From: an uncultured Planctomycetia bacterium | GTDB lineage: Bacteria > Planctomycetota > MHYJ01 > WSZJ01 | Direction: 5' to 3' | Length of the DNA stretch: 64,000 bases | Assembly (NCBI GenBank): GCA_963706735.1 | Contig: CAVPNQ010000072.1 | Location: 4,932-68,931 of the forward strand | Shown here: piece by piece, positions 5,921-50,529 of the stretch | Layout: every line of letters starts with the position of its first letter | Position numbering within the stretch: the first letter of the stretch is position 1 | Made by a program: the position numbers and the translations under genes | Notes under the pieces: generated by a model | Told to the model about the DNA's origin: nothing | What the model saw: the letters and a program-made list of their open reading frames with translations, nothing else | The model's database searches: none

Positions 5921-6244
5921 ATGCCCGAGCACGCCGTGGTCCTGATGACCGCGCCCGACGCGGCGGCCGCCGAGCGCATAGCGCGGGCGCTGGTCGAAGA
6001 GCGGCTGGCCGCGTGCGTCAACATCGTGCCCGAGGTCCGCAGCGTCTACCGGTGGGAAGGGAAGGTCGAGGAGTCCCGCGAAGTGATGCTGGTCGCCAAG
6101 ACGCGGCAGTCGCTGTTCGCGAGGCTTGAAGCCCGCGTGCGCGAGCTTCACCCCTACGAAGTCCCCGAAATCGTCTCGATGCCTCTCACCGACGGCTCCC
6201 GTCCGTATCTTTCATGGCTGGACCAGTCGGTCCTTCCCGCGTGA
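5921..6244 (+). CDS. cutA: Divalent-cation tolerance protein CutA
   Basis: 107 aa containing the CutA1 signature ...CVNIVPEVRSVYRWEGKVEESREVMLVAKT... Confidence 0.85.
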   Translation: MPEHAVVLMTAPDAAAAERIARALVEERLAACVNIVPEVRSVYRWEGKVEESREVMLVAKTRQSLFARLEARVRELHPYEVPEIVSMPLTDGSRPYLSWLDQSVLPA

Positions 6245-12853: not shown

Positions 12854-14215
12854 CTAGAAGTCGATCTGTACGCGGAAGATGAACATGTCCACGCCGTCCT
12901 CACGACGGCCGGCGATGACCAGCGGCTTCGTGTGTTCGTCGCTCTTGAATTCCTCGTGCACGTAGGCGATCGACACGCGGGTGTTCGCGTTGGGGAACCA
13001 GTTCACCCCTACTGCGTACTCGTCGACCTCGCGTGCGGAGGTGCCCTTGTTGAGAATCCCCTTATCGAACATGTCCCGGTTGAACTCGAACCGGCTGTAC
13101 CGGGCGACAACCTCGATGGCGCCGATGCCGCCGCCGCCACCAAAGAGAGGCTTGTTCGGGCGGATGCGATCCCAGGTCTTCTGGTCGCCGGTCAGGAGGC
13201 ACGACGCGCTCACGAAATACGCGGTGATGTGCGTGCGGCTGTGGCCCTTGTCCGACAAGTCCGTGTAGCCGTCGCTCGTGCGCAGGAACTCGGCCTTGAA
13301 GGACGCGGGACCGAAGAGCCAGTACAGCTCGGCCTGGACGCGGTAACGCTTCTCGTCGAACTTGATGGCGGAGCCACTCGGCCCGATATTCGCAAATGTC
13401 GTGCGCGTCATCGGGTCCGAGAACGTGTACGGCAGCGTGTTATTCTTGAGTTCGCGGCGGCCCGAGCTGGCCGACACCGCCAGGTGGAGGTTTTTGATCC
13501 AGTCGCTTTCCTGCGTGGCCAGCGGGCGGAACCAGATGCGGCCGGTGATGTCCTTGTCGCTGTTCTCGTCAGGGCCGTTACGGCCGTTGCCGTTGGTCAG
13601 GAAGAGGGCGTACCCGAAGATCTTCTCGACGATGTCTCCGTGAAGCTGGATGCCGACTTCGCGCGCTGGCACGAGGCGGTTCAGCAGGCTGCGCTCGGGC
13701 AGGTCGATGAAGCGGGTCGACGTCAGCTCTTCGAGCGACATCGGCGCCTTGAACTGGCCGACCTGCAGCTTCGCGAAGGAGAAGTGCTCGAAGCCGACGT
13801 AGCCGTCATCGAGCGCGAAGCTAGAACCGGTGGTAGAGGCTTCGACCTTGTAGGTCCAGTCCTTCCAGATCTTGCCCTGGAGGTAGATCTTCACCTGCCG
13901 GAAGTCGAACGTGTCGATCTTCTGGCGTTCGTTCATGTTGCTGTACAGCCGGGCGTGCCAGATGACGCGGCCGCCGATGGTGCCTTCGAGATTTCCGTCT
14001 CCGCTCTTGTACTTGAACCCGTCGCTGAAGAAGACGTCGATCTTCTTCGAAAGCGCCTGGGCCGCCGGAGACCCGGGCTCGGGCGCGGTGCCCTCGCTCT
14101 CCTCCTTCACCTCGAGCTTCTCCTCCAGTGCCTTCACCCGCTCCTCGATGGTCTCGGCGCAGGCGAAGCCGGCGCAGAGGGCGAGGAGTCCCAGCGTCCT
14201 GGACAGACGATTCAT
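12854..14215 (-). CDS. Phosphate-selective porin O/P family outer-membrane beta-barrel
   Basis: Signal peptide MNRLSRTLGLLALCAGFACA with an AGGAG ribosome-binding site. N-terminal coiled-coil segment, alternating amphipathic strands and a C-terminal Phe. Sits immediately downstream of phoU-pstBACS on the same strand. Confidence 0.7.
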   Translation of the reverse strand: MNRLSRTLGLLALCAGFACAETIEERVKALEEKLEVKEESEGTAPEPGSPAAQALSKKIDVFFSDGFKYKSGDGNLEGTIGGRVIWHARLYSNMNERQKIDTFDFRQVKIYLQGKIWKDWTYKVEASTTGSSFALDDGYVGFEHFSFAKLQVGQFKAPMSLEELTSTRFIDLPERSLLNRLVPAREVGIQLHGDIVEKIFGYALFLTNGNGRNGPDENSDKDITGRIWFRPLATQESDWIKNLHLAVSASSGRRELKNNTLPYTFSDPMTRTTFANIGPSGSAIKFDEKRYRVQAELYWLFGPASFKAEFLRTSDGYTDLSDKGHSRTHITAYFVSASCLLTGDQKTWDRIRPNKPLFGGGGGIGAIEVVARYSRFEFNRDMFDKGILNKGTSAREVDEYAVGVNWFPNANTRVSIAYVHEEFKSDEHTKPLVIAGRREDGVDMFIFRVQIDF

Positions 14216-14273
14216 CGTGCCTCCTGAGAAAAGGAACCTGTTCGTTTCACTGGTGCGGGAGGGTAGGAGGGGC

Positions 14274-14316
14274 GGATTCAGGCTCCACAAGCGGAGTTTT
14301 AAGAATGCGTAAAGAA
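14274..14316 (-). promoter_or_regulatory. Candidate Pho-box-like array upstream of the porin gene
   Basis: On the minus strand, TTTAC/TTAAA/TTGTG/TGAAT pentamers recur with 11-nt periodicity (tttacgcattc ttaaaactccg cttgtggagcc tgaatcc), about 60 nt upstream of the start. Confidence 0.25.
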
Positions 14317-14825: not shown

Positions 14826-15497
14826 TCACGCGCCGGCGCGCACTCCGCGCCGGTGCCGCACGATCTCGCCCGTCACCAGGTAGATCGTGTCCTCCGCGAT
14901 GTTCGTCGCAAGGTCCGCGATGCGCTCCAGCTCCCGCCCGATCCTGTAAAGCTCAAGCGCCGCATCCACGTGCGCCGGGCCCTTCCGGAGTGTCCGCCGG
15001 GCTTCTTCCGTGATCTCCCCGTCCAGACGGTCGATCGCGTCGTCCGCCGCCACCACCGAGCGCGCTTCCTCCGCATCCTGCCGCCTCAGGGCCCGGATCC
15101 CCCGCGAGATCGCCTCCGTGACCCGCGCCGCCATCTCGCCGGCCTGGGGCGGAAGGGCGAAGGCGCGATCCTGGAGGACGGAGATCGTGAGGCGGCCGAT
15201 GTTGTTCGCGTGGTCGGCGATCCGCTCGAGGTCGTTGTTCACCTTGAGAATCGTCGTCAGGTAGCGCAGATCCCGCGCGACCGGCGCGTACAGCGCGATC
15301 ATCTTGAGGCACTCCTCCTCGATCCGCACTTCCGCCCGGTCCACTTCGCGATCCATCTCCGTCGAGCGCCGGGCCCGTTCGGCGTCGCCCGTGACGAGCG
15401 CGTGGACCGCGTCCTCGACGCAGCGCATCACGAGGTCCTCCTCGCGGGAAAGGAGCTCGTTGAGGGCGTCGACAGCCTGGGCAAAGTGCCGTGACAT
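14826..15497 (-). CDS. phoU: Phosphate transport system regulator PhoU
   Basis: Two PhoU repeats (…NDLERIADHANNI… and …ELERIADLATNIAED…). Adjacent to pstB. Confidence 0.9.
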   Translation of the reverse strand: MSRHFAQAVDALNELLSREEDLVMRCVEDAVHALVTGDAERARRSTEMDREVDRAEVRIEEECLKMIALYAPVARDLRYLTTILKVNNDLERIADHANNIGRLTISVLQDRAFALPPQAGEMAARVTEAISRGIRALRRQDAEEARSVVAADDAIDRLDGEITEEARRTLRKGPAHVDAALELYRIGRELERIADLATNIAEDTIYLVTGEIVRHRRGVRAGA

Positions 15498-15541
15498 CGT
15501 GGGGAGTCTCCTGTTGCGGGTCCGGGACCCGGGCTGGCCGA

Positions 15542-16312
15542 TTAGCCGAATTTGCCCGAGACGTAATCCTCCGTCTCGCGGTGCTTCGGTCTCTGGAAAA
15601 TCTCCGCCGTCGGGCCCTCTTCAACGAGGTCGCCGAGGAGGAAGAACGCGGTGCGGTCGCTGCAGCGGGCGGCCTGCTGCATGTTGTGCGTGACGATGAT
15701 GATCGTGTACTGCTTCCGGAGTTCGCGGAGGGTTTCTTCGATCTTGGCGGTCGAGATGGGATCGAGGGCGCTTGCGGGCTCGTCCATGAGGATGATTTCG
15801 GGATCGTTCGCGAGGGTGCGGGCGATGCAGAGGCGCTGCTGCTGCCCGCCCGACATGTCGATGGCGGAGCGGTCGAGGCGGTTCTTGGCTTCTTCCCACA
15901 TGTCGGCCTGGCGGAGGGAGCGCTCGAGGATCCGTTCGAGGGCGTCGCGGTCGCGGACGCCGGCCATGCGCGGGCCAAACGTGACGTTTTCGCGGATGGA
16001 CATGGGGAACGGGTTCGACTTCTGGAAGACCATGCCGACTTTCTTGCGAAGAGCCTCGAGGGAGACGCGGGGGTCGGCGATGTCTTCGCCGTCGACGAGG
16101 ATGCGGCCGGTCATCCTGAATCCGGTGATGACGTCGTTCATGCGGTTGAGGCAGCGCAAGAGGGTGGACTTGCCGCAGCCGGAGGGCCCGATGAACGCGG
16201 TCACCTGGCGGGCGGGGATGTGGACGGTGACGTCCTTGACGGCGTGGTGGTCGCCATAGAAAACGTCGAGGTTGTGGATGGAGACGGCGGAGGTGTCGGT
16301 AGCCGTGATCAC
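15542..16312 (-). CDS. pstB: Phosphate ABC transporter ATP-binding protein PstB
   Basis: Walker [13 protein letters not shown] signature LSGGQQQRL, Walker [12 protein letters not shown]. PstB-typical length of 256 aa. Confidence 0.95.
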
Positions 16313-17904
16313 AGGGAGGAGCCCTTGAAGCGGCGGCTGAGGCGGTTGCGGAGGATGATGGCGGCGAGGTTGAGGCCGAGGACGAGCAGGAGGAGAGCCA
16401 GGGTGCTGGCGTAGGTCATGGGCTTGGCGGCCTCGACGTTGGGGGACTGCATGGAGACGTCGTAGATGTGGAAACCCAGGTGGGTGAACTTGCGGTCGAG
16501 GTGGAAGAACGGGAAGGCGGAATCGACGAGGGGCTGGGGAGCGAGCTTGACGGCGGCGCCGAGGACCATGAGGGGCGCGACCTCTCCCGCGCCGCGGCCC
16601 ACGGCGAGGATCATGCCGGTGAGGATGCCCGGAAGGGCCTGGGGGAGGACGAGGTTACGGATGGTCTGCCAGCGTGTGGCGCCGAGTGCGAGGGCGCCGT
16701 CGCGGTAGGACTGGGGCACGGAGCGCAGGCCCTCGGACGCGGCGACGATGACGACGGGAACGGTGAGGAGCGCCAGCGTGAGGGCGCCCCAGAGGATGCC
16801 GCCGGTCCCGAACGTCGGGTGGCCCGTGCCGGGAAAGAACGCTCGGTCAACGCCGGCGCCGAGCGTGTACACGAACAGGCCGAGGCCGAAAATCCCGAAC
16901 ACGATGGAGGGCACGCCCGCGAGGTTCGCCATGGCGAGGCGGACGATCCGCAGCGGCCATCCGTCGCGCGCATATTCGTTGAGGTAGATCGCCGCGACCA
17001 CGCCGAGCGGAACCGCGGCGATGGTCATGACGATGACGAGGAAGAGGGTTCCCATGATGACCGGGAAGATTCCGCCTTCCGTGTTCGACTCGCGGGGGCT
17101 GGTGGTGAGGAAAGCCCAGGCCCCGGCCAGGTAGTGACCGATCTTGCTGAAGAAGCCCATCCGGTTCGGCTGCCACGAGCGGACGATCGTGATGGCGGGG
17201 GTGGTCGCAATCGAGCCGTCCGCCTGCCGCCAGTCGATCGTGATCGCCTTGCCGGCCTCCTCGATTTCCTTTCGCTTCTTCTCCAGCCCGGCCAGGCGGG
17301 CGGGGTCGCGGGACGAATTCATGTCCTCGCGAACGGATTCCAGCTGGTGCAGCAGCGTCAATCCGCGGGAGAGCCCTTCATCCAGCGTCGCCGCCCCGTG
17401 GACGCCGGCGAAGTAACCGTAGAGTCTTCCGTACTCGACGCGATCGAGCGTCCAGGCATCGGCGGGGGCGGATTCCGAGGAGACATCCGCATCGTCGATC
17501 CAGACGAAGTCGTTCACACCGGCGGTTTCGCGGCGTCCGGCGTAGATCAGGCGGCGGCCCAGGCCCGTGTTCCTGCCCGGTTCGCGGCGCTCTCCGCGGT
17601 CGCGAACTTCCCCGAGTGTCACCGAGCCGTCTTTACGGCGGATTTCAATGGCGCGCGACGGCCAGAACTGGGCGAATCCCTCGACGACGGTGATCCCGAG
17701 GATGAGCACGAGCATGATCCCCACGATGACGAGCCCCGCGGCCGTGGACCAGATCCAGCCGCGCCCCTGCGACCGGCCGTCGTGCCGGTAAAGCGATTCC
17801 GGCGCCGGCGACGATCCCGTCGGCGCAGGCGGCGGGTTGACGGGCGGCTCCTCCGGCTCCCCCTGCAGGCGATCCGTCTTCTCGAGCACGCTAGACCCTT
17901 CCAT
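16309..17904 (-). CDS. pstA: Phosphate ABC transporter permease PstA, long form (531 aa) with extended periplasmic loop
   Basis: C-terminal half carries the permease core including the EAA-like loop ([16 protein letters not shown]). A ~250-aa N-terminal extension precedes it. Confidence 0.9.
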
Positions 17905-20146
17905 ACTTCCTCCGGAGCCTTGAGCCGACGAGTTCGGCGACGGTGTTGAGGGACGCCGTGAAGGCGAAGAGGAGCAGGCCCGTGAGGAACAGGACGCGAT
18001 AGAGGGAGCCGTTCACGGGCGCTTCGGGAATCTCGATGGCCATGGCGGCGGAGAGGGTGCGCATGCCGTTCCAGGGGGCTGGGTCGAGAATCGGCGTGTT
18101 GCCCGCGGCCATCACCACGATCATGGTCTCGCCCGCGGCGCGGCCGAGACCGAGGATGATGGCGGCGAAGAGTCCCGAGGCGGCGGCAGGTAGGATGACG
18201 TGGCGGACGGTCTGCCAGCGGGTGGCGCCGAGGGCGAGGGCGGCGCTGGTCATCGAGGCAGGGACGTTCGCGATCGCGTCCTCGGCGATGGTGAAGATGA
18301 CGGGGATGACCGCGAAACCAAGGGCGATGCCGACGAGGAAGCCGTTGCGGATGTCGTAAGTGACGTGGAGGACGTCGAAGAGCCACTGGCGGAGGTCGCC
18401 GCGGAAGAAGATGCGCTCGACGGACCCCTGGAGCAGGGCCGCCAGCAGGCAGGTGATGAGGATGACGAGGACCGCGCCGCCGATCTCGACGCCGGCGACG
18501 GGGTGGCGATCCGGCCGGCGCGGGATGCGTCCGCTCAGCGAGACGACGGCCGCGAAGACGCAGGGGAGCAGGAGCCCGCCCACGAGGATCGCGCAGAGAA
18601 GCCTCTCGACCACCGGCGCGAGCCAGAGTGCTGCGATCATTCCCACGACCACGCTGGGAATGCCGGCCATCAGCTCAATCGACGGCTTGACCCAGGAACG
18701 GAGCTTCGCGGGCGCGAACCGCGCCACATAGATGGCCGCCGCCAGCGAAATCGGGACCGAGAACAGAAGGGCGTAGAGCGTTCCCTTGAGCGTCCCGGCG
18801 AGAAGCGGCCAGAGCGAGTACTTCGGCTCGGAGTCCTGCGTTCCCGAGCTCGACTGCCAGATCAGCTCCGGGCCCGTGTAGCTCTCGTACCAGATCGGCG
18901 CGAGAAGGGAGGCCGCCGTGACATCCGGGTGGGGGTTTCGCAGCGTCCACGAGCGGAGGCCGTCGGTCCAGGTGGAGAGCTCTTCGCCGGTCGGCCCGAA
19001 GGCGACGCGAGTGGACGGCATCGGGGCGGGAGGAGGGATGGCCAGGGAGAGATTTTCGCTGGTGGCGTGGAAGACGGAGACTCCGCCCGCGGCGTCGCCC
19101 ACGGCGAAGCACTTGTTGCGCGGGCTGACGGCGATGACGCGGGCGGCCGCAGGCAAGACGGGGAATTCGCGGGCCGGCACGAACCTGTTGCCGCCTGTGG
19201 AAATCGTGACGGGGCCGCCCTTGGGGACGTGTTTCGAGTGGTCGCGGTCGAGAACGATGACGCTTCCACCCGGCGGGATCGCGTCGCCCAGTACCCGAGC
19301 CTCCGCCGCGCCGGCGTTGGCCAGCTTGACGTGCCGCGCCTTCATCCACCCGATGACGCTTCCGCGCTCGTCCGCGGCGAGGAGGGTCTCGTCGCCGAGG
19401 AGGAATGCGAGTGCCGTGCGGGGAGCAGGTCCAGGGGGCAGGTTCTGCACCCGGAGCGGCTCCGCCGCGTCCTCGACGTTCCAGATTTCGATCTCACCCG
19501 ACTTGAGCGCGAGGGCCAGGAGCTTGCCCGATCCCGCAAGCGCGACTGCCACGACAGCCTTCGCTTCCAGCGGCGTTTCCGCCGTGCCGGCGAGCCCCGC
19601 GGGGCCGCAGACCGTCACGACATGATCCCGGAGGACTGCGATCCGGGCGTGTCCTTCGTCGTCCCTCGCCGCCGCAATCTCGCACGGCGCCGGCGGCGAC
19701 ACCGACTGCTCGTCGAGCACGGCCACGCCGACGTTGCCGTCGCGTTTCTTCTCCACCCGCACCAGCGCAATCCGACCGTCCTCAAACAGGATCGCGACCG
19801 AGCGGGAAGTCCCGGCCTGCGCCGCCGCGACGGGCCGCGCGCCGTCATACCCCGGGAGCTGGATCCGCGCAGGGCGGCCGTCTTCGCCGATCTTCCACGC
19901 GCCGTCCCGCGTCACCCACCACGGCTGCCCCAGCCCTTCAATGAAGTCCAGCGCCAGGCACCCGCCGCCGTCCTTCAACACCACTGCGGCCTTCGCCTTC
20001 GCCGGCAGGATCAGCGGAATCGTGACCGCAATCAGGAAGACCAGAATTCCCAGCACGCACGCGACGATGAGCATCCCCCCGGCCGGGATCACTTTAGAAG
20101 CGATCCGGTCGAAGACGACGGCTCGGAGATTCGGTTCGTGGGCCAT
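17891..20146 (-). CDS. pstC: Phosphate ABC transporter permease PstC, long form (751 aa) with large N-terminal periplasmic beta-rich domain
   Basis: C-terminal ~300 aa is the PstC permease (…[16 protein letters not shown]…). N-terminal TM helix plus a ~400-aa periplasmic domain. Confidence 0.85.
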   Translation of the reverse strand: MAHEPNLRAVVFDRIASKVIPAGGMLIVACVLGILVFLIAVTIPLILPAKAKAAVVLKDGGGCLALDFIEGLGQPWWVTRDGAWKIGEDGRPARIQLPGYDGARPVAAAQAGTSRSVAILFEDGRIALVRVEKKRDGNVGVAVLDEQSVSPPAPCEIAAARDDEGHARIAVLRDHVVTVCGPAGLAGTAETPLEAKAVVAVALAGSGKLLALALKSGEIEIWNVEDAAEPLRVQNLPPGPAPRTALAFLLGDETLLAADERGSVIGWMKARHVKLANAGAAEARVLGDAIPPGGSVIVLDRDHSKHVPKGGPVTISTGGNRFVPAREFPVLPAAARVIAVSPRNKCFAVGDAAGGVSVFHATSENLSLAIPPPAPMPSTRVAFGPTGEELSTWTDGLRSWTLRNPHPDVTAASLLAPIWYESYTGPELIWQSSSGTQDSEPKYSLWPLLAGTLKGTLYALLFSVPISLAAAIYVARFAPAKLRSWVKPSIELMAGIPSVVVGMIAALWLAPVVERLLCAILVGGLLLPCVFAAVVSLSGRIPRRPDRHPVAGVEIGGAVLVILITCLLAALLQGSVERIFFRGDLRQWLFDVLHVTYDIRNGFLVGIALGFAVIPVIFTIAEDAIANVPASMTSAALALGATRWQTVRHVILPAAASGLFAAIILGLGRAAGETMIVVMAAGNTPILDPAPWNGMRTLSAAMAIEIPEAPVNGSLYRVLFLTGLLLFAFTASLNTVAELVGSRLRRKYGRV

Positions 20147-20195
20147 GGATTGAAAAGGCGCGGGGGCCGGGACGATGTCCCGGCCCCCGGACCGC

Positions 20196-21185
20196 CTACT
20201 TCGCTTCCAGCTTGACCAGTTCCTTCGTGACCATCGCGGGCGTCAGCGGCATGTAGCCGTCCTTCACCACGATCTCCTGGCCTTCCTTCGACAGCACGAA
20301 CCTCACGAACTCCCTCACCACCGGGTCCGGGCCCTTGGAGGGCACGTTCTCGACGTAGAGCATGAGGAAGCGCGCCAGGGGGTACTTGCCGTTCAGGCAG
20401 TTTTCGTAGGTCGGCTTGTAGACGTTCGCCTGGAAGGTTTTCGCGAGGGGCACGGCGCGGACACCCGGGGTGATGTACCCGATGCCGCCGTAGCCGATGC
20501 CGTACAGGTCCTCGGCGATGCCCTGCACCACCGCGGCGGTGCCGGGCTGCTCCTTGACGCTGGACTTGAAGTCGCCCTTGTAGAGCGCCTTCTCCTTGAA
20601 GTACCCGTAGGTGCCGCTCGCGCTGTTACGGCCGTAGAGGCTGATCGGCTTGTTCGCCCATTCGCCCGTCAGGCCCAGCTGGCCCCAGGTCGTGATGTCC
20701 TCGTGGTGCCCGCTCTTGCGGGTCTTCGAGAAGATCGCGTCCACGAGCTCGAGCGTCAGGTTCTGGACCGGGTTGTCCTTGTGCACCACGATCGCCAGCG
20801 CGTCGATCGCCATGTTCACGCCCGTCGGCTGGTAGCCCCACTTTGCGGCCACCGTGTCGATTTCCTCCGCCTTCATGGGGCGGCTCATCGGGCCGACGTT
20901 TGCCGTGCGGCTCGCCAGCGCCGGCGGCGCCGTCGCCGAACCCTTCGCCTCGACGCTGACGTTCACCTCCGGGTAGACCTTCTTGAACCCCTCGCCCCAC
21001 AGCGTGTCGAGGTTGGCGCACGAATCCGACCCGATGATGTTGACGTTGCCGCGGACCCCGTCGACCTTGGTGTAGGCCGCAATTGCGGGATCGACTTTCA
21101 CTTCCGTGCTGTCGGCCACGACCGCGACCGTCAGGGCCGCCGAACCGACGAGCGATGCCAGCCAGAAACGACCGTTGAAGTTCAT
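20196..21185 (-). CDS. pstS: Phosphate-binding protein PstS
   Basis: Signal peptide followed by the PBP fold motifs (…SASGTYGYF…, …GYGGIGY…). Confidence 0.9.
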   Translation of the reverse strand: MNFNGRFWLASLVGSAALTVAVVADSTEVKVDPAIAAYTKVDGVRGNVNIIGSDSCANLDTLWGEGFKKVYPEVNVSVEAKGSATAPPALASRTANVGPMSRPMKAEEIDTVAAKWGYQPTGVNMAIDALAIVVHKDNPVQNLTLELVDAIFSKTRKSGHHEDITTWGQLGLTGEWANKPISLYGRNSASGTYGYFKEKALYKGDFKSSVKEQPGTAAVVQGIAEDLYGIGYGGIGYITPGVRAVPLAKTFQANVYKPTYENCLNGKYPLARFLMLYVENVPSKGPDPVVREFVRFVLSKEGQEIVVKDGYMPLTPAMVTKELVKLEAK

Positions 21186-23802: not shown

Positions 23803-23868
23803 TTCGCGAGTTTCCGCCGGCTCTGCTAGATTCCGGGTTCGAGCCCCATTCCCGTGGAGTTCCCGCGC

Positions 23869-24732
23869 ATGAAGCACCTCCTGTCCCGGATGAGCCTTGC
23901 CCTCGCCATCGCGGCCTTCGCCGGCGACGCTTCCGCCCAGCTCGTGACCGAGAACGCCGGAGTGGTGTCACCGGAGACGCCGATGGCGCGGCTGACGATC
24001 CGGGGAAGCCAGTGGCGGCACGTGGACGAGGCGCAGGCGGTCGGGGAGTTTCGTTACTCCTTCCACCCGAGGTTCGAGGGCGCGGCATTTGTCCCGCTCA
24101 TCACGCGCCGCTTCGAGCTCGGAGGCGACCACGAACGCATCACCGGCATCGGCGACGTCGCGGTGCAGGGCAAGGTCAACATCCTCAAACAGGACGCCGT
24201 CATGTCCTCGATGCGCGCGGCGGTGTTCGGCGGAATCGAGTTCCCGACCGGCGAGTGGGACGACACCATCGGGAATGCCACTTTGCCGTATACGCGCAAA
24301 CTGCAGCTGGGAAGCGGGACGTTCGACTTCAAGCTGGGCGCGGTCTTCACGTACATCGCCGACCGGCACCGCTTCTCCATCGACGCCTGGGGGCAGGCGA
24401 GCACGTCGCGCGGCGAGGTCAGCCCGGGGCCGATCATTCGCGTTGACGCCTCGTACTGGTTCCGTCTGTTTCCGGCAGTTTTCGAGCCGGGGGAGGCGGG
24501 AATGGAACTCCGGCTGGTGGTGGACGCGTGGTACCTGCACCGCTATCACACGCGCGGCGAATCGGTCGATGACAGTGCCGACCAGGTCTGGGTCGCGCCC
24601 GGCGTGCAGTTCCACGTGACGAAGTGGCTGACCCTGGAAGCGAGCATCGGTTTCAATCTCGCCGACAGCTCCGACGACGAGTACGGCCGGGCGCAATGGA
24701 CCGGGTTCGTGGCGGCCAGCATCCACTTTTGA
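23869..24732 (+). CDS. Outer-membrane beta-barrel protein (~290 aa; MetA/phenol-degradation-like transporter family candidate)
   Basis: Signal peptide MKHLLSRMSLALAIAAFAGDASA. Alternating beta-strand pattern. C-terminal …AASIHF. Confidence 0.6.
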   Translation: MKHLLSRMSLALAIAAFAGDASAQLVTENAGVVSPETPMARLTIRGSQWRHVDEAQAVGEFRYSFHPRFEGAAFVPLITRRFELGGDHERITGIGDVAVQGKVNILKQDAVMSSMRAAVFGGIEFPTGEWDDTIGNATLPYTRKLQLGSGTFDFKLGAVFTYIADRHRFSIDAWGQASTSRGEVSPGPIIRVDASYWFRLFPAVFEPGEAGMELRLVVDAWYLHRYHTRGESVDDSADQVWVAPGVQFHVTKWLTLEASIGFNLADSSDDEYGRAQWTGFVAASIHF

Positions 24733-24743
24733 CCGGAGGTCCC

Positions 24744-25187
24744 GTGCGTCGCGCGACGTACTTTGCCCTCCTCCTCTCCGGTTGCGCCGTGGCGCCGCCC
24801 GCGCCGGTCACGGCCCCGGCGGAGGGACTGCTTCGGATGATCGTCGAGGTCTCCGGGATGGAGTGAAGTCCCTGAGTGAAGGGCGTCGAGGACGCCCTGG
24901 GACGCCTGGATGGCGTCGCGGCCGTGACGGTGGATCTGCAGGCAGGGCGGGCGACGGTCACGCCGAGGGTCGGGGCGCGCATCGAACCCGAAGTCGTATT
25001 TGCAGCCCTGCGGAACGCGGGTTTCCGTCCCGACGCGGTGAACATCGAGGCGACCGGAGAGATCAGGCGGAGCAACGGCGTGGCAAGGCTGTTCCTGCCC
25101 GGGCAGCCCGACGCCTGGATTGCCGTGCCCGAACCGGCTCCCCCCGACGGGCAGGCCCGCATCGAGCTGCGGATCACGCCGCGCTAG
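24744..25187 (+). CDS. Periplasmic HMA (heavy-metal-associated) domain lipoprotein with two in-frame TGA codons at the CxxC positions (candidate UxxU selenoprotein, or a pseudogene)
   Basis: GGAGG then GTG start. Lipoprotein signal MRRATYFALLLSGC. One continuous frame from 24744 to 25187, interrupted only by TGA at 24864-24866 and 24873-24875, reads …VEVSGME-U-SP-U-VKGVEDALGRLDGVAAVTVDL…. This matches the HMA consensus GMxCxxCxxxVExAL with both Cys replaced by TGA. A 8-bp hairpin (24880-24898) follows. Confidence 0.5.
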
Positions 25188-25540
25188 CTGCCGAACCGCG
25201 CCGCGTACGCCTGCTTCGCTTCTCCCATGAACGCCTGAAGCGCGAGCAAGCGCAGGATGCCGCCCTTCGCGCGTACGGCGCCGGTCGCCGCGGCCTGCGC
25301 GGGGGGCAGCCGGCCGGAAAGGAGCTCGTGCGCCGCGGCGACGGTGAGGGTCAGCTCGACGCCGGGTTGGGCGTGCTCGTCCCCGGATACGGAGAAGGGC
25401 TCGAGCGAGAGATCCAGCACCACGAAGGATGCCGGCGCCAGCAGCCGGAACTGCAGCACGACGCCGGACTTCTTCGCCGCGGCGCGGGCGTCCGCGCTCG
25501 CCTTCAGGTCCTCGAACAGGGCGATGAACTCGGCGCTCAT
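25184..25540 (-). CDS. SCP2 sterol-carrier-like domain protein (118 aa)
   Basis: MSAEFIALFEDLK…LLSGRL…GGILRLLALQAF carries the SCP2 pattern. ATG overlaps the cysS stop. Confidence 0.65.
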   Translation of the reverse strand: MSAEFIALFEDLKASADARAAAKKSGVVLQFRLLAPASFVVLDLSLEPFSVSGDEHAQPGVELTLTVAAAHELLSGRLPPAQAAATGAVRAKGGILRLLALQAFMGEAKQAYAARFGS

Positions 25541-33711: not shown

Positions 33712-33863
33712 CGCACCGAAAAAGGCTGCAAAGGGGAGACCGCAGGAGGAAGTCCCTGCGGGATCGGATCGGAAGAAGCCGCGCGAACATGTGAAATTCC
33801 CCACTTGTGCGTAAAATCACGATTCGAAAGTGTCCCATCCCCCAGATTTCCGCGTGTTTGCGG

Positions 33864-33880
33864 CGGCACTTCCCTTGCAT
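33864..33880 (+). promoter_or_regulatory. Sigma54 (-24/-12) promoter
   Basis: cGGCACttcccTTGCAt shows GG and GC at the canonical 12-nt spacing. The -12 TTGCA ends 31 nt upstream of the regulator start codon. Confidence 0.6.
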
Positions 33881-33910
33881 ATCAGTTCCCACCCTAATCG
33901 CGGTGAATCC

Positions 33911-35308
33911 ATGAACATCCTTGTCGTCGACGACGAAAAACTCATCCGCTGGTCGCTCAAGGAGCGCCTCACGCGCGAGGGCCACTCCGTCACGGAAGCC
34001 GAGGACGGCAAGTCCGCCCTCGAGGCCTTCCACCGCGAGACGCCCGAACTCGTGCTGCTCGACATGAAACTGCCCGACACCGACGGGCTCAGCATCCTCC
34101 GCGCGATCCAGAAGGAATCCCAGGGCGGCCCCGAAATCCCGGTCATCGTGATCACGGCCTATTCGACCGTCGATACCGCCGTCGAGGCGATGAAACTCGG
34201 CGCCTTCGACTACGTCGCCAAGCCGTTCAACATGGACGAACTCGCCATCACCGTCCGCCGCGCCCTCGAGACCAGCTCCCTCAAGCGCGACGTCCGCGCC
34301 CACGTCTCCGAGCGCCGCTCTTCGTTCGGCGTCCACAACCTCGTCGGCAAATCGAAGTCGATGCGCGACGTCATCGAGCTCGTCCGCCGCGTCTCCCAGA
34401 GCGGCGCCTCCACCGTCCTCGTCCGTGGCGAAAGCGGCACCGGCAAGGACGTCATCGCCAAGGCCATCCACTACGAGTCCAACCGCAGCGACAAGCCCTT
34501 CATGAACATCACCTGCACCGCCCTCCAGGACACGCTGCTCGAGAGCGAATTGTTCGGGCACGAAAAGGGAAGCTTCACGGACGCAAAGATGCAGAAGAAG
34601 GGCCTCTTCGAGCTCGCCAACGGCGGCACCCTCTTCCTCGACGAAATCGGCGACATGTCGCCCACGCTCCAGTCCAAGGTGCTGCGCGCCCTGGAGGAAA
34701 AGGCGTTCCGGCGGATCGGCGGCACGGTGGACATCAAGGTCGATGTGCGCGTGATCGCGGCGACCAACAAGGACCTGGAGAAGGCGATCGCCGAAGGCCG
34801 CTTCCGCGAGGACCTGTACTACCGGCTCAACATCATCACGATCCTGGTGCCGCCGCTGCGCGCCCGCAAGGAGGACGTTCCGCTGCTGGTGCAGCATTTC
34901 CTGAAGCGCTTCGCGGAGGAATTCCGCAAGGAAGTGAAGGACCTGACGAAGGAAGCGTACGACAAGCTGTCGGGGTACGACTGGCCCGGGAACGTGCGCG
35001 AGCTGAAGAACGCGATCGAGCGCGCGGTGCTGCTGGGGCAGGGGCCGACGATGGGGGCGGACGACCTGGCGCTGGGGAGGCCGGGGCCGGCATCGACGGG
35101 GGAGGAGGGCGCGAGGCTCCTGAAGCTGCCCTCGAAGGGGATCGTGCTGGAGGACCTGGAGAAGGACCTGGTGGTGCAGGCGCTGGAGCGGACGGCGGGG
35201 AACCAGACGCGGGCCGCGGACCTGCTGGGGATCACGCGGGACCAGATCCGGTACCGGATGGAGAAGTTCGGGTTGATGAAGGGCGAAGAGGCGCACCATA
35301 ACAGCTAG
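33911..35308 (+). CDS. Sigma54-dependent response regulator (NtrC family)
   Basis: REC domain, AAA+ ([14 protein letters not shown] sigma54-contact variant of GAFTGA) and C-terminal HTH. Preceded by a sigma54 promoter. Confidence 0.9.
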
Positions 35309-35342: not shown

Positions 35343-36191
35343 ATGGAACAGCCGACCGGGGTTGACGCGTACGCTCCCGCCGAGATGGCGGCGAGGGTCG
35401 AAGACACGGGGGTGAAGAAGGCCGCCCTCGGGATGGGCTCGATGCTGGCGCTGGCGGTGCTCGCCGGGGCGTTCATCGGCCTGGGCGCGGCGTTCTCGAC
35501 GGTGGCCGCGACGGACACGCGGATGGGATACGGGCCGACGAAGCTGCTCTCGGGGCTCGCGTTCTCGCTCGGGCTGATCCTCGTCGTCGTCGCAGGCGCG
35601 GAGCTCTTCACCGGAAACGTCCTGGTCATCATGGCCTGGGCGAGCCGCCGCGTGACGACGGCGCGGCTGCTGCGCAACTGGGTGTGCGTCTACGCGGGGA
35701 ACTTCGCGGGCGCCGCCGCGACGGCAGCCGCCTTCTACGCCTCTCATCGCTGGGCCGATGCCGGCGCCCAGCCCGGCGCGACGGCTCTTCGCATCGCCCT
35801 CGCCAAGTGCACCCTGCCGTTCGGGACGGCGTTCGTGCTGGGTGCGCTGTGCAACGCGCTCGTGTGCCTCGCCGTCTGGCTGTGTTTCAGCGCCCGCAGC
35901 ACGACGGACAAGATCCTGTCGATCCTGTTTCCCATCACGGCGTTCGTGGCCCTCGGCCTCGAGCACAGCGTCGCCAACATGTACTTCATCCCGCTGGGAA
36001 TGATGCTCCGGTCGGAGCCCGCGGTGCTCGCCGCGGGCGGGTGGACGCCCGACGCCCTCGCGCCGGTCGGCTGGGCCGGGCTCGCCGCCAACCTCGTCCC
36101 CGTCACCCTCGGCAACATCGCCGGCGGCGGACTCATGGTGGCCGCCATCTACTGGTACGTCTACCTGCGCGAGGGCCGTCGCAGCCCCTGA
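35343..36191 (+). CDS. Formate/nitrite transporter family channel (FocA/NirC-like)
   Basis: FNT signatures (…LSGLAFSLGLILVVVAGAELFTGN…, …LCNALVCLAVW…). Length 282 aa. Lies 34 nt downstream of the regulator. Confidence 0.8.
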   Translation: MEQPTGVDAYAPAEMAARVEDTGVKKAALGMGSMLALAVLAGAFIGLGAAFSTVAATDTRMGYGPTKLLSGLAFSLGLILVVVAGAELFTGNVLVIMAWASRRVTTARLLRNWVCVYAGNFAGAAATAAAFYASHRWADAGAQPGATALRIALAKCTLPFGTAFVLGALCNALVCLAVWLCFSARSTTDKILSILFPITAFVALGLEHSVANMYFIPLGMMLRSEPAVLAAGGWTPDALAPVGWAGLAANLVPVTLGNIAGGGLMVAAIYWYVYLREGRRSP

Positions 36192-36462: not shown

Positions 36463-37674
36463 ATGCTCTCCCTGACCGATCGCGATATCCAGTCCCGCAA
36501 AGCCTTCGTGCAGCTCACCGCCGAAGACGAACGGCTGCTCCGCGAAGTCCACTCGCTGCTCTCACAGCACGCCGACACGATCATCAACCGGTTCTACGAG
36601 TTCCTCCTGTCCCACGATCGGACGCGCAGGATGCTCGAGGCCCCCGGCCAGGTAGAGCGGCTCAAGGCCCTTCAGCGCACCTACTTCAACCGCCTGACTG
36701 CGGGGAACTACGACGCCGAGTATTTCCGGGAGAGGGTCCGGGTCGGTCTCACCCACGAAAGGGTCGGGCTGCCCCCGGAGATGTACCTGGGCGCCTATCA
36801 CCGTTACTTCCAGATCGCTTCCGATGTGCTTCGCGGCGCCTTCCCGCCCGGCGACGCGCGCTACCACCGCACCGTGGCCGCCCTAGGCAAGATCATCACG
36901 CTCGACATGAGCCTCGCGATCGATTCCTACATCGACCAGGCCCACTCCACCCTCCACAACCGCAACGCCGAGCTCGTCCGCCTCCAGGGCGCCAAGCGCA
37001 TCCTGAGCGACATGATCATCCACGACCTCCAGAACCCCCTCGCCGGCATCCGCGCGTTCCTCGAGCTCCTCTCCACCCGCGAGCAGGGACTGAGCCCCAA
37101 CGAGGACGAAGCGCTCACCGAGGCCCTCCGCCGCTGCGACGATCTCGGCCAGATGATCATGAACGTCCTCCAGGTCAGCCGCGCCGAGGCGGGAAGCCTC
37201 GAGGTCAATGTCGAGAATTTCGACGTGGCGGAACTCGCGCGGCGAAGCGTCGCAGCGTTCGACCTGCATGCAGGACAGGAAGGGCGCTCAATTGAGCTGG
37301 AAGCTCCAGGGTCGCTGACCCTCCGGTCGGACCAGTCGCTTCTCAAGAGAGTGTTTTACAACCTCATCCGCAACGCGGTCAGGCATACCCCGCGCGGGAC
37401 GAAGATCCTGGTGCGCGTCACGGAGGCGGCGGAAGGGAAGGCGGAGATCTCCGTGGTGGACGACGGGCCGGGAATCCCGAAGAACGTGCAGCATCTGTTG
37501 TTCGAGCGGTACGGCGGGCAGGCCCTGCGCGAAGCGGGATTGCGGGTGGACACCGGGCTCGGGCTGTCGTTCTGCCGCTCCGCCGTGGAGGCCATGGGCG
37601 GCACGATTGCCGTCGAAAGCGACGGCCGCTGCGGGACCGCGTTCCGGCTCGTGGTCGGGCAACCGACGGTCTAG
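36463..37674 (+). CDS. Globin-coupled sensor histidine kinase (protoglobin sensor domain + HisKA + HATPase)
   Basis: N-terminal globin-coupled-sensor pattern (…INRFYEFLLSH…LKALQRTYFNRL…YFRERVRVGLTHERVGL…YLGAYHRY…). H-box IIHDLQNPL. G-boxes in the C-terminus. Confidence 0.85.
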   Translation: MLSLTDRDIQSRKAFVQLTAEDERLLREVHSLLSQHADTIINRFYEFLLSHDRTRRMLEAPGQVERLKALQRTYFNRLTAGNYDAEYFRERVRVGLTHERVGLPPEMYLGAYHRYFQIASDVLRGAFPPGDARYHRTVAALGKIITLDMSLAIDSYIDQAHSTLHNRNAELVRLQGAKRILSDMIIHDLQNPLAGIRAFLELLSTREQGLSPNEDEALTEALRRCDDLGQMIMNVLQVSRAEAGSLEVNVENFDVAELARRSVAAFDLHAGQEGRSIELEAPGSLTLRSDQSLLKRVFYNLIRNAVRHTPRGTKILVRVTEAAEGKAEISVVDDGPGIPKNVQHLLFERYGGQALREAGLRVDTGLGLSFCRSAVEAMGGTIAVESDGRCGTAFRLVVGQPTV

Positions 37675-37678: not shown

Positions 37679-38530
37679 CTACTTCGACCGCACCACGAGC
37701 ATCGGCACCGTCGCCGAACGCAGCACCTTCTCCGTCACGCTTCCCATCACCCACCGCGACGGCCCGCTGCGACCGTGCGTGCTCATCGCGAGCAGGTCCA
37801 CTCCGTGACGCTTCGTCGCGTCCAGGATCTCCGAGGCGGGATCCCCGAGCCGGATGACCGGGTCCACGGGGATGCCGGCCTGCGCGAGGTCCTTCACCGC
37901 GATCCGCACCAGCGGCTCGCCTTCGCCCGCCTTGCCCTCCGAGGTGGGCTCGACCACCCCGAGCACCAGCACGCTCGCCCCGACTGCCTTCGCGAACGTC
38001 TTCACGTACGGAAGCACCGCCAGCGACTTCTCGCTGCCGTCGATCGGGACGAGGATCTTCTTGAAGGGGATTTCCTGGACCGGCGTCCGATCGGCGCCGA
38101 CGGCGCTGTCCTTGTAGGAGCGCACCATGAGAACGGGAACCTCGCTGGCCCGCATGACTTTCTCCGCGACGCTGCCGAACACGAACCGCGAGAAACCGCT
38201 GCGGCCGTGAGTCGCCATGGCGATCATGGTCGCTTTTTCCTCCTTTGCCGCGTCGAGGATCGCGGTCGCCTCGCCGCCGACCCGGACGACACCGCGGGAC
38301 TTGACTCCCTCCTTCGCGAGCTGGCGCTCGAGCGCCGCGATGTAGCGTTCGGCTTCCGCCTTGAGGTCAGACAGCAGAGGCGCGAATTCGACCCCGGGCT
38401 GAACGGGGACGGGGACCGCTTCAAAGAGGATCACGCTGGAGTCATTCAGGCGGAGCAGCCGGCAGACCTGCCCGAGGATGGCCTCTGCGATTTCCGAACC
38501 GTCGAGCGGGACGAGGATGCGTTCGAGCAT
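37679..38530 (-). CDS. Tandem universal stress protein (2x UspA domain)
   Basis: Two …ILVPLDGSE…ATHGRSG…VLRSATVPMLVV… units. Confidence 0.85.
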   Translation of the reverse strand: MLERILVPLDGSEIAEAILGQVCRLLRLNDSSVILFEAVPVPVQPGVEFAPLLSDLKAEAERYIAALERQLAKEGVKSRGVVRVGGEATAILDAAKEEKATMIAMATHGRSGFSRFVFGSVAEKVMRASEVPVLMVRSYKDSAVGADRTPVQEIPFKKILVPIDGSEKSLAVLPYVKTFAKAVGASVLVLGVVEPTSEGKAGEGEPLVRIAVKDLAQAGIPVDPVIRLGDPASEILDATKRHGVDLLAMSTHGRSGPSRWVMGSVTEKVLRSATVPMLVVRSK

Positions 38531-38727
38531 GGCTCACCTCTTGAATTGGAAGGCCGATCAGGACTCCGGTCGACGCACCTGCGCCCGGAATATACCCGCA
38601 CAAGGTGTGCCGTGGAGTCCTGCATGGAAACGCGGCCAGCGAATCACCAACAGGGGAAAATTACGCTCTTCCCGGTAGAATCTACCTCCTGATCGGGCCG
38701 GATGCGGGGATTTCCCACTCTTCAGGC

Positions 38728-38743
38728 GGCCCTGCGTTTGCGC
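38728..38743 (+). promoter_or_regulatory. Sigma54-type promoter upstream of the USP gene
   Basis: cGGCCCtgcgtTTGCg shows GG and GC at the 12-nt spacing. The -12 GC lies ~46 nt upstream of the ATG. Confidence 0.45.
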
Positions 38744-38788
38744 TTCCGTTCATCCCCCCCTTACTCTCACTCAGCCGCGGAGGGCCCC

Positions 38789-39694
38789 ATGTACCGGACC
38801 ATTCTCGTTCCCATCGACGGCTCCACCCTGTCCGAGCACGCGATTCCCTTCGCCATCGAAATCGCCCGCCGAGCCAAGGGACGCGTCAGGCTCCTGCGGG
38901 CCCTTCCAGAGTCGCTCATCGTCACGGACATCCCCGTCTCGGTCCAGGCCTCCGCCCGCAAGCTCGCCCACGCCGAGGTCGACCGGCTCGTGAAGACCTA
39001 CAACTCGGCCGAGGTTCCCGTCGAGGCCGAAGTCCGTATCGGATTCCCCCTCGAGGAAATCAATCGCGCCGCCACCAAGGCCGACCTCGTCGTCATGACC
39101 ACCCACGGCCGCGGTGGAGTCCAGAGATGGGTCATGGGAAGCGTGGCCGACAAAGTCATCCGCCTCGCCGCGACCCCGGTTCTCGTCATTCACCCGCCGC
39201 AGAAGCGGACCCGCGCGATGGCCGAGGCAGGCGCGCTCCGCATGTTCCGCGACGCCATGGTTTCCCTCGACGGTTCTCCCCTCTCCGCCCAGGCCCTCCG
39301 CGAACTCCGCCAGTTCGCCGAAGGCGGCACCCGCATCCACCTCCTTCGGGTCGTCGCCAGCGACGCTTCCCCCGCCTCGGTTGACCTCGCCGCCAACCAG
39401 CTCAAGGACGCCGCCAGTGATCTTGTCGCCCGCGGCGTGAACGTGGTGCAGGCGGTGGCGAAGAGCGACAGCCCGGCGGAGGCGATCGTGGAGTACGCGC
39501 TGCAGAAGGGCTGCGGCGTGATCGTGATGACGACGCGCGGCGCCGGGGGGATCGAGCGGTGGATGCTGGGCGGGATCACTGACAAGGTGGTCCGGCATGG
39601 TCCGACGCCGGTCCTCGTCATCCGCGCTTCGAGGGCACTCTGGAAGGGCGGCAAGCGGCCGCTCGGCGGCAGGCGGAATATCCGGGTGATCTGA
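38789..39694 (+). CDS. Tandem universal stress protein
   Basis: GGAGGG ribosome-binding site. Two UspA units (…TTHGRGG… and …TTRGAGG…). Confidence 0.85.
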   Translation: MYRTILVPIDGSTLSEHAIPFAIEIARRAKGRVRLLRALPESLIVTDIPVSVQASARKLAHAEVDRLVKTYNSAEVPVEAEVRIGFPLEEINRAATKADLVVMTTHGRGGVQRWVMGSVADKVIRLAATPVLVIHPPQKRTRAMAEAGALRMFRDAMVSLDGSPLSAQALRELRQFAEGGTRIHLLRVVASDASPASVDLAANQLKDAASDLVARGVNVVQAVAKSDSPAEAIVEYALQKGCGVIVMTTRGAGGIERWMLGGITDKVVRHGPTPVLVIRASRALWKGGKRPLGGRRNIRVI

Positions 39695-39723
39695 GCGGGG
39701 ACGGCCCACGAGAAGAGGTTGCC

Positions 39724-40560
39724 ATGCTGAAGCACATCCTGGTCCCGCTCGATGCCTCGCCGGCGGCGGAGTCGGTGATCGACCGGCTGCTGCCGCTTCT
39801 GGCTCGCGCCGGAACGGACGTCGTGCTGCTTCACGTCGCCGAACCGCCGCTGGCCGCTTCGCTCGAGCCCGGCCGTGCGGACGATGCGCGGGCCGAGGCA
39901 CAGGGATATGTGAGGGACCTGGCGAAGCGTGTTTCGGGGAAGGGAGTGCGTTGTCGCGGGATCGTGAAGCCGGCTCCGGCGGCGGAGGCGATTGTGGCGG
40001 AGGCGGCGGCGAGGCCCAACGGGATGATTGCGATGGCGACGCACGGGCGGAAGGGTCTGGCGCGGCTGGCGTACGGGAGCATTGCCGAGAGTGTGCTTCG
40101 GGCGAGTCCGGTGCCGGTGCTGCTGGTGCGGACGGCGGGGGAGCCGAAGAAGCCCGAGCCGCTCGTGATCCGGAGGATCGTCGTTCCGGTGGATGGAAGC
40201 ACGCACGCGCTGGGGATCGCGCCGCACGTCACGGAGCTTGTCACGGCGTTTCACGCGCAGGTCACGCTCGTGCACGTCCTGCCGCCCCGGCCGGCGCTGG
40301 GGGAAACGGTGGCCCATGCAGAACGAGTCATCGAGACGGCCAAGGCTGTCTTTGCGGATGCCGGAGTGACGTGCGACAGCCTGATCAGCACGGGGGATGC
40401 GGCGGAGGAGATTCTTGAAGCGGCGGCAGGGAAGAAGGCGGACCTGATCGCCTGTTCCACGCATGGACGGACCGGGATCGTGAGGGCCGTGATGGGGAGC
40501 ATCGCGGAGAATGTGTTGCGTTCGGGCAACCTGCCGATGCTGGTGGTCCGGAGCGCCTGA
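39724..40560 (+). CDS. Tandem universal stress protein
   Basis: Two UspA units (…ATHGRKG… and …STHGRTG…). Confidence 0.85.
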   Translation: MLKHILVPLDASPAAESVIDRLLPLLARAGTDVVLLHVAEPPLAASLEPGRADDARAEAQGYVRDLAKRVSGKGVRCRGIVKPAPAAEAIVAEAAARPNGMIAMATHGRKGLARLAYGSIAESVLRASPVPVLLVRTAGEPKKPEPLVIRRIVVPVDGSTHALGIAPHVTELVTAFHAQVTLVHVLPPRPALGETVAHAERVIETAKAVFADAGVTCDSLISTGDAAEEILEAAAGKKADLIACSTHGRTGIVRAVMGSIAENVLRSGNLPMLVVRSA

Positions 40561-41250: not shown

Positions 41251-41805
41251 ATGAAGCTGATTGCGTTCTGCGGACCGTCGGATTCCGGCAAGACCTGGAT
41301 GATCGAGCGCCTGGTGCGGCTCTGGACCTCGCGTGGTCTCAAGGTCGGGGTCGTCAAGCACTGCTCCAAGGGCTACCAGCTGGACCGCGAGGGGAAAGAC
41401 TCGAGCCGCTTCTGGGAAGGAGGGGCCGCGGCCGTCGCGGTCGTCGGGCCCGGCGAGTGGGCGGTCCGCCGTCGCGAACCCGAGGCCGACCCGGTTCGCA
41501 TTGCCGAAGAGGCGTTTCCCGGAGTCGACGTGGCCATCGTGGAAGGATTCCGCGACGTCGCGATCCCGCGCGTCCGGGTCTTCGGGGCGAGCGAGCTGCC
41601 CTCATGCACGGACGCGGACCACGACATCATCGCCGCAGTGTCCCGCACCCCGGGTACGGCCCAGAACATTCCCATCTTCGCGCTGACCGACGCCGACGGG
41701 CTCTCGGACTTTCTCGCACACAGGCTCGGGCTGAATCTCGCCCTCTCCACGGATCCGGAGGCCGCCGTGCTGAGACACGAAAGAGCGGGCGCTCGTCCGG
41801 CTTAG
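41251..41805 (+). CDS. mobB: Molybdopterin-guanine dinucleotide biosynthesis adapter protein MobB
   Basis: P-loop GPSDSGKT, …VVKHC… and size 184 aa are typical for MobB. Confidence 0.8.
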   Translation: MKLIAFCGPSDSGKTWMIERLVRLWTSRGLKVGVVKHCSKGYQLDREGKDSSRFWEGGAAAVAVVGPGEWAVRRREPEADPVRIAEEAFPGVDVAIVEGFRDVAIPRVRVFGASELPSCTDADHDIIAAVSRTPGTAQNIPIFALTDADGLSDFLAHRLGLNLALSTDPEAAVLRHERAGARPA

Positions 41806-45789: not shown

Positions 45790-45802
45790 GCGTGAAGCCT
45801 CC

Positions 45803-50517: not shown

Positions 50518-50529
50518 GTTTGATCTCCC

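Follow-up and report, generated by a model that had tools for sequence, protein, structure and literature searches.

The question raised by this locus is whether two TGA codons, lying three codons apart in an otherwise open reading frame, stop translation or are read as amino acids. The frame, at positions 24744-25187 on the forward (+) strand, belongs to a 64,000-nucleotide (64-kb) stretch of DNA from an uncultured Planctomycetia bacterium; this whole stretch is called the window below. The first-pass annotation took the frame to encode a lipoprotein with a heavy-metal-associated (HMA) domain in which both metal-binding cysteines (Cys) are replaced by selenocysteine (Sec, U), giving a UxxU instead of a CxxC motif. 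This reading has now gained comparative support. We favour recoding of the two UGAs because the TGAs are conserved, because relatives have Cys at the same positions, because the protein is under selection on both sides of the TGAs, because stem-loops behind them covary, and because TGA is a stop codon elsewhere in the window. We put the probability at about 0.78 that 24744-25187 is a genuine UxxU selenoprotein of about 147 amino acids (aa), a periplasmic, lipid-anchored metal carrier working together with a beta-barrel protein encoded next to it.

The reading frame and its product

The frame starts with GTG at 24744, four nucleotides behind a GGAGG ribosome-binding site (24735-24739), and runs for 147 codons to a TAG at 25185-25187, interrupted only by TGA at 24864-24866 and at 24873-24875. 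The starts of the orthologous genes introduced below are also preceded by comparable purine-rich sites. The peptide reads VRRATYFALLLSGC…MIVEVSGME-TGA-SP-TGA-VKGVEDALGRLDGV… and begins with a signal peptide (24744-24785) ending in the lipobox LLLSG-C. Residues 11-14, L-S-G-C, are the feature by which a bacterial lipoprotein is recognized, and the mature protein is predicted to start with Cys14 (24783-24785), which would carry the lipid. Lipoboxes were called by inspection against the pattern [LVI][ASTVI][GAS]C; those of the orthologs read LAGC, AAGC, LLGC or LAAC, and 10 of the 11 orthologs have one ([LA][AS][GA]C). In every ortholog the signal peptide is encoded upstream of the TGAs. Start codon, ribosome-binding site, lipoprotein signal and open frame are all as the first-pass annotation had described them.

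The HMA domain (24843-25025, +) has the ferredoxin-like beta-alpha-beta-beta-alpha-beta order with the metal loop G-M-E-U-S-P-U. When C is written for U, residues 34-94 match the Pfam HMA family PF00403 with 47.8 bits against a cutoff of 24.8 (E=1.8e-12), and in an alignment the two TGAs fall on the Cu(I)-binding CxxC of the ATP7B and CopZ domains. The earlier claim that the TGAs occupy the first and second Cys positions of the HMA motif (Sec1 and Sec2) therefore stands. The domain is followed by a beta-rich C-terminal extension of about 53 aa (25026-25184, +), which is continuous with the long beta4 strand of the HMA domain; the mature protein would be a lipid-anchored HMA domain with this extension. 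Public gene calls have kept only 24876-25187, as a 103-aa protein (P0001) without a name. A structural model of this fragment (predicted local distance difference test, pLDDT, 82), in which beta1 and the metal loop lie outside the modelled part, has four extra strands.

Conservation of the two TGA codons

A search with the full-length query against 5.8 billion proteins gave only four matches, all of 103-109 aa and all starting just past the second TGA. Further loci were collected by alignment of the post-TGA part alone, which favours neither Cys nor Sec forms, and from other short-form matches. The comparison set consists of the window and 11 distinct sequences from independent assemblies, 12 in all; L004-L007 are Planctomycetota metagenome-assembled genomes and the rest of the 11 are metagenome contigs. 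The orthologs are, where measured, 43-71% identical to the window protein.

An alignment of homologs had been named as a check in the first-pass annotation, and it came out in favour of the Sec reading. Ten of the 11 other sequences have G-[ML]-E-TGA-x-P-TGA at identical codons, and the first TGA is also found in the eleventh, L014, which reads TGA-ACC-CCC-TGC (3989-4000), or U-T-P-C, and is a natural Sec/Cys swap at position 2. The first TGA is thus present in 12/12 distinct sequences and the second in 11/12, and the distant relatives have CxxC. The frames of all 11 orthologs are intact, with no TAA, TAG or frameshift. Pairwise ratios of nonsynonymous to synonymous substitution rates (dN/dS) are 0.22-0.75 upstream and 0.23-0.69 downstream of the TGAs. 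With dN/dS below 1 on each side, purifying selection acts on the protein encoded by either half of the gene, whereas silent sites are close to saturation (dS about 0.5-2). No start codon follows the second TGA in L005, L006 and L007, where ACG, GTC or GCG is found instead, and the conserved peptide KGVxDALGRLDGV runs on past the second TGA in all three.

The window, which has a GC content of 67%, uses TGA as a normal stop codon, as had been stated before: TGA terminates 13 of the 49 genes called from the GC content at third codon positions (GC3), including the gene directly upstream of the HMA frame. This upstream gene ends with TGA in the window and with TAG in L003. Genome-wide reassignment of TGA is ruled out because TGA ends these 13 genes. 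Judged by the comparison, both UGA-encoded positions of the predicted metal site are translated and do not terminate the protein.

Relatives with cysteine

When 1.84 billion representatives were searched exhaustively with a profile, 467 matched, and the best 145 single-domain-sized proteins among them were examined. Full-length secreted proteins of about 155-190 aa that share the C-terminal extension make up 77 of the 145, and nearly all of these have CxxC at the aligned site, mostly in the context G[ML]xCPFC and also as GMDCAPC or ELSCPSC. The other 68, each representing a 50%-identity cluster, start at or just past the motif and look as truncated TGA forms would. Profile-profile alignment with hhalign joins the Sec orthologs and the Cys family at 99.9% probability (E=7e-32, 109 columns), in agreement with an HMA-superfamily fold, and the U positions land on the two invariant Cys columns. 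We read this as the classical signature of a Sec/Cys pair: an in-frame UGA is aligned to Cys. The UGA is also conserved in the orthologs, with coding constraint on either side.

A model of a Cys-form relative based on 50 sequences (pLDDT 93.4, predicted template modelling score 0.85) has the HMA domain fused via the long beta4 strand to a second domain. This second domain resembles the oligonucleotide/oligosaccharide-binding (OB) fold, and the C-terminal extension of the window protein corresponds to its first part.

It should be noted that about 30 representative clusters, including P0022, P0031, P0047, P0059, P0060, P0067 and P0069, share one exact start, [MV][RS]VA…, three residues past the expected second Cys/Sec position. 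The shared truncation suggests a further, more distant HMA clade interrupted by TGA.

RNA hairpins behind the TGA codons

Two in-frame hairpins follow the TGAs. Hairpin 1 (24880-24898, +) has an 8-bp stem, AGGGCGUC/GACGCCCU, and the loop GAG; it starts 13 nt after UGA1 and 4 nt after UGA2, and its loop begins 21 nt after UGA1. This is the hairpin of the first-pass annotation, and it was borne out: the 81-nt region containing it folds with -38.5 kcal/mol (z=-3.4), and none of 200 shuffles was as stable. What had been missed is hairpin 2 (24901-24917, +), with a 6-bp stem GACGCC/GGCGUC and the invariant loop UGGAN (UGGAU in the window), which is the better candidate for a selenocysteine insertion sequence (SECIS). 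Its loop starts 31 nt after UGA2 and 40 nt after UGA1.

RNAalifold, applied to the 12 distinct sequences, independently recovers both hairpins. In the two-hairpin structure 97% of the cells are paired and 6 of the 14 pairs change on both sides (4/8 in hairpin 1 and 2/6 in hairpin 2). The observed pairing and covariation were matched by 0 of 500 shuffles, and slid controls were 30-48% paired with 0-1 double changes. Some of the compensations are nonsynonymous, namely those of L011 and L014 in hairpin 2 and of L013 in hairpin 1. The loop sequence of hairpin 1 varies among the 12 sequences. Frozen synonymous sites are found only at Pro59-Val74, where 6 of 8 invariant codons are frozen against 1 of 16 elsewhere (Fisher p=0.0013).

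The consensus for bacterial SECIS elements sets rules for loop, stem, energy and spacing, the usual spacing being 16-37 nt (PMC13188914). Hairpin 2 agrees with these rules in loop, stem and energy, and also in its spacing to UGA2 (31 nt); hairpin 1 fits the spacing rule for UGA1 (21 nt). Hairpin 2 is the better match to the consensus and likely the site for SelB, and hairpin 1 would be either a helper or spacer or the element of the first UGA. A strict scheme with one hairpin for each UGA was also considered and is not supported, as the UxxC variant L014 retains both hairpins.

The barrel gene and the genomic neighbourhood

Directly upstream of the HMA gene and in the same orientation lies a gene for an outer-membrane beta-barrel of the Phenol_MetA_deg family (PF13557/COG4313; 23854-24732, +; Pfam PF13557 E=1.2e-05). 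Its start is uncertain (the gene called on contig L009, from the same sample, has 287 aa), and 11 nt separate its TGA stop codon from the HMA start. A barrel gene is found directly upstream of the Sec form wherever the flanks are readable (the window, L003-L007, L009, L011, L012 and L014), several of these genes being assigned by size and position only, with no Pfam match. A barrel gene also lies directly downstream of the Cys form P0026 (L015/L016), with a 4-nt overlap. We regard the barrel and the HMA gene as a conserved two-gene module because the barrel adjoins both Sec forms and a Cys form.

The wider surroundings vary. In L007 the pair follows a gene for a CusA/CzcA heavy-metal pump of the resistance-nodulation-division (RND) type (TIGR00914, E=2e-181), in L003 genes for an ArsR/SmtB regulator and ACR3 lie divergently to it, in L012 the gene behind the pair encodes a regulator of the ArsR type, and the Cys form P0026 adjoins FeoAB. 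These varied neighbours point to handling of soft metals or metalloids at the outer membrane; direction and specificity are not settled by them. Close relatives share the neighbours acetyl-CoA hydrolase/GNAT, SCP2, CysS and IspF. The small SCP2 (sterol-carrier-like) gene of the window (25184-25540, -) runs towards the HMA gene and shares 4 nt with its 3' end; the convergent gene is kept in L001, L006, L009 and L014, and not in the more distant loci.

A model for the protein and the alternatives

In the model that we propose, the signal peptide would be cleaved before Cys14 and Cys14 lipidated, which would leave a periplasmic membrane-anchored protein consisting of a Pro/Ala linker, the HMA domain and a small C-terminal beta domain. 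The UGAs would be recoded by the downstream in-frame stem-loops, read by SelB with Sec-tRNA(Sec); hairpin 2 is most likely the SECIS bound by SelB, and hairpin 1 may serve as a helper or spacer or as SECIS for UGA1. By homology to CopZ, ATP7B and MerP, the two selenolates would hold a soft metal ion, e.g. Cu(I), Hg(II), Ag(I) or Cd(II), in low coordination. In the oxidising periplasm selenols should stay deprotonated and recover more readily from oxidation. The gene linkage suggests that the lipoprotein and the barrel, which are probably co-transcribed, pass metal ions to or from an outer-membrane channel, with detoxification or export more likely than uptake.

Several points weigh against this model. 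The UGAs are taken as Sec from comparison, and the inserted residue may be Sec or Cys; the metal specificity cannot be inferred. No selA, selB, selD or tRNA-Sec is found within the 64-kb window, and the neighbours there are housekeeping genes (pst, CysS, IspF) with no adjacent metal-resistance genes. As to the hairpins, no Rfam SECIS model matches 24700-25000 even at E<=10. The 40 nt between UGA1 and hairpin 2 are just beyond the usual 16-37 nt, and hairpin 1 lies only 4 nt from UGA2 and has no G at the first two loop positions in 4 of the 12 sequences. Finally, L014 keeps both hairpins, by compensatory changes, despite its single UGA.

The doubt about the inserted residue can be given a definite form. 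The UGAs could be recoded through SECIS and SelB with one or both of them read as Cys by a tRNA-ReC (selC*-type), so that the protein would have CxxC, UxxC or CxxU. tRNA-ReC decodes SECIS-linked UGA as Cys, and it is reported to be significantly enriched in genomes with UxxU motifs, about 56% against 2.3% (PMC13582414). The UxxC variant L014 further indicates that Cys is tolerated at position 2. The 64-kb window has no tRNA-ReC, which says nothing either way since it holds no tRNA at all. It is easier to see why two costly UGAs are kept in 11 sequences, with TGC only one mutation away, if Sec is wanted at both sites, and we consider decoding as Cys unlikely, though it deserves to be kept in mind. 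We give somewhat less credit to the idea that the UxxU selenoprotein is real with the diselenol as a redox centre, i.e. a periplasmic selenenyl-selenide oxidoreductase which e.g. reduces a substrate or a partner protein. In favour of this, redox enzymes with UxxC or CxxU motifs make up the majority of the known bacterial selenoproteins, and in the window the HMA gene stands without metal genes, in a thiol-rich, SCP2-flanked housekeeping locus kept among close relatives. The fold and the loop are those of an HMA metal site and not of thioredoxin, however, CusA/CzcA, ArsR/SmtB and ACR3 are neighbours in independent contexts, and every known HMA selenoprotein is assigned to the metal-binding class.

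It is very improbable that the TGAs are true stops, be it in a pseudogene, through a sequencing or assembly error, or as the border between two open reading frames (ORFs) for a 40-aa lipopeptide and a 103-aa protein starting from GTG 24876. The two-ORF version is the one annotated by gene callers, a GGAG formed by ATG-GAG codons lies upstream of GTG 24876, and the Sec machinery is not seen in the window. Two separate ORFs are nevertheless ruled out by the three orthologs with ACG, GTC or GCG after the second TGA, where a restart is impossible. The 103-aa fragment would also lose the signal peptide, strand beta1 and the metal loop, and the Cys-form relatives are single full-length proteins. Sequencing error or a pseudogene is ruled out by the 11 further concordant assemblies together with a dN/dS below 1 upstream as well as downstream of the TGAs: 11 sequences assembled independently of one another have both TGAs, and the orthologs share them without the frameshifts or other stops of a decaying gene. 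True stops would, finally, leave the covarying hairpins unexplained. The metal-carrying UxxU selenoprotein is the reading that we prefer.

Possible selenocysteine elsewhere in the window

ARAGORN finds no tRNA of any kind, tRNA-Sec included, in the 64-kb window, and in the whole window no Rfam family reaches its gathering score. Full sets of genes for Sec insertion are documented in several Planctomycetes (PMC4807772). A scan for TGA-bridged frames, covering the window and the related loci, gave the HMA gene and only one further plausible, small candidate, with TGA at 59467. The other flagged sites were read, after inspection of their translations, as low-complexity off-frame or antisense artefacts.

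The candidate ORF (59386-59673, +) comes directly after the genes for subunits III and IV of a caa3 oxidase. It reads as a signal peptide followed by MKRLLYRTALAFALLLAFAPAVYAADC-TGA(59467)-KQAQPG…, with the TGA preceded by a Cys codon (C-TGA), and it ends in a transmembrane helix. GC3 remains high past the TGA, and a 7-bp hairpin with the loop GGU (z=-3.45) starts 26 nt downstream of it. A homolog search with the candidate found none. CU dipeptides have been described as heavy-metal contact motifs (bioRxiv 10.1101/2022.07.06.499078). The ORF is a possible second selenoprotein, and would give weak independent support for Sec in the genome from which the window comes.

Other genes of the window

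CutA1, a divalent-ion tolerance gene (5921-6244, +), lies about 18 kb from the HMA gene and has no evident link with it. The phosphate uptake locus (14826-21185, -) contains PhoU, PstB and PstS, is unusual in the length of its permease-like subunits (531 and 751 aa), and is accompanied by a phosphate-selective porin O/P at 12854-14290. Two tandem Asparaginase_2 paralogs of the Ntn-hydrolase type, with a slight overlap, are found at 2428-4403 (-).

A cluster at 44515-52272 (-) resembles a type II enzyme of the dimethyl sulfoxide (DMSO) reductase family. Its molybdopterin oxidoreductase (46104-49643) has 1179 aa and is accompanied by a 4Fe-4S subunit (44515-45789) and by a protein that combines two cytochrome c domains with a haem domain of the ethylbenzene-dehydrogenase type (50530-52272); nitrate/nitrite, selenate or chlorate are among the conceivable substrates. 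MobB (41251-41805) and a formate/nitrite transporter (35343-36191) are encoded near it. Three adjacent genes at 37679-40560 each have tandem double universal-stress-protein (Usp) domains, and they adjoin genes for a protoglobin-histidine kinase (36463-37674) and a sigma-54 response regulator (33830-35308).

Implications

If the UxxU reading is true, the locus lends itself to the study, in a natural gene, of how SelB copes with two UGAs at a distance of three codons. The natural series of UxxU, UxxC and CxxC forms, together with two covarying hairpins, makes the decoding of close UGAs directly testable, and L014, as a naturally occurring control, can help to tell which hairpin acts on which UGA. 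For Sec in metal handling the context would be new: a metal site with two selenols that lies outside the cytoplasm, is membrane-tethered and is genetically linked to an outer-membrane channel. There is also a consequence for annotation. The public 103-aa fragment has neither signal peptide nor metal site, and as about 68 of the 145 related clusters start alike, the annotation of a considerable number of secreted selenoproteins may be wrong in a systematic way.

A wider proposal can be put forward tentatively, and we think it rather less probable than its negation: the window protein could be the first to be recognized from a large family that annotation has concealed, a family of extracytoplasmic metal carriers with two domains (HMA plus OB-like), the Sec forms of which have a bis-selenolate UxxU site. 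With the COG4313/Phenol_MetA_deg barrel they might form a previously undescribed outer-membrane module for soft-metal trafficking, the UGAs being decoded by means of tandem hairpins.

Comparison with known systems

The first-pass annotation considered Sec in HMA-like proteins, and a UxxU site in particular, to be nearly unreported. This was overstated, as NCBIfam already curates NF041115 ("UxxU_metal_bind") and NF045683 ("MerT/CopZ fusion-like selenoprotein"). In reviews NF041115 appears as a UxxU "putative mercuric reductase" with 2 Sec, attributed to a study of Olavius symbionts (PMC9312934, PMC13188914). A UxxC cation-transporting ATPase is listed in reviews as well, and UxxU motifs have been described in Prx-like proteins.

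NF041115 describes the closest likeness, with Sec in place of both CxxC cysteines of an HMA-type domain and with predicted binding of soft metals. Against its cutoff of 95 bits the window protein reaches 32.3, and the Cys-form relatives score 22-66 bits. The profile has 74 positions, i.e. a single HMA domain, whereas the window protein has 147 residues and brings in addition the lipoprotein signal, the linker, the C-terminal beta domain, the barrel partner and its occurrence in Planctomycetota. NF045683 (MerT_CopZ_Se) and the Sec-containing cation ATPase (UxxC) are alike in having Sec in the HMA-type loop of a metal-transport component, but these are membrane-transporter fusions, and with NF045683 the window protein scores 20.4 bits where 375 are required.

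MerP (TIGR02052) is the periplasmic Hg(II)-binding protein of mer operons. The score of the window protein is 25.7 bits against a cutoff of 92.55, and there is no merT, merA, merR or other mer gene among the annotated genes of the window; the window protein also differs in its lipid anchor, its extra domain and its predicted Sec ligands. The best matches in both sequence and structure are CopZ/Atx1 and the domains of Cu(I) P-type ATPases (ATP7B, CopA, PacS). The CopZ-type models NF047957, NF033795, NF033794 and TIGR00003 give at best 45.9 bits against a cutoff of 85, and none of them is reached. CopZ/Atx1 and the ATPase domains are cytoplasmic Cys proteins which bring metal to ATPases, while signal peptide and lipobox make the window protein extracytoplasmic. 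Membership in NF041115, MerP, CopZ or MerT_CopZ_Se is rejected, since every curated cutoff is missed.

CusF is a small periplasmic carrier of Cu(I)/Ag(I) with an OB fold, encoded beside the CusA-type pump (CusCBA). It resembles the present system in that the pair of genes in L007 follows a CusA/CzcA gene and in that the second domain of the window family is OB-like.

The UxxU forms of Group 4 [NiFeSe] hydrogenases likewise have two UGAs three codons apart in a metal-ligand CxxC, they show the same variation between UxxU, UxxC and CxxC, and they raise the same question of how one SECIS region serves two UGAs. Their fold and function are unrelated, and a single SECIS is suggested for them (PMC13582414), in contrast to the two covarying hairpins found here.

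We found no description of the present family of HMA lipoproteins, in Cys or Sec form. Sec in HMA loops is not new; as far as the sequences allow us to judge, what is new is the family and the architecture of the window protein.

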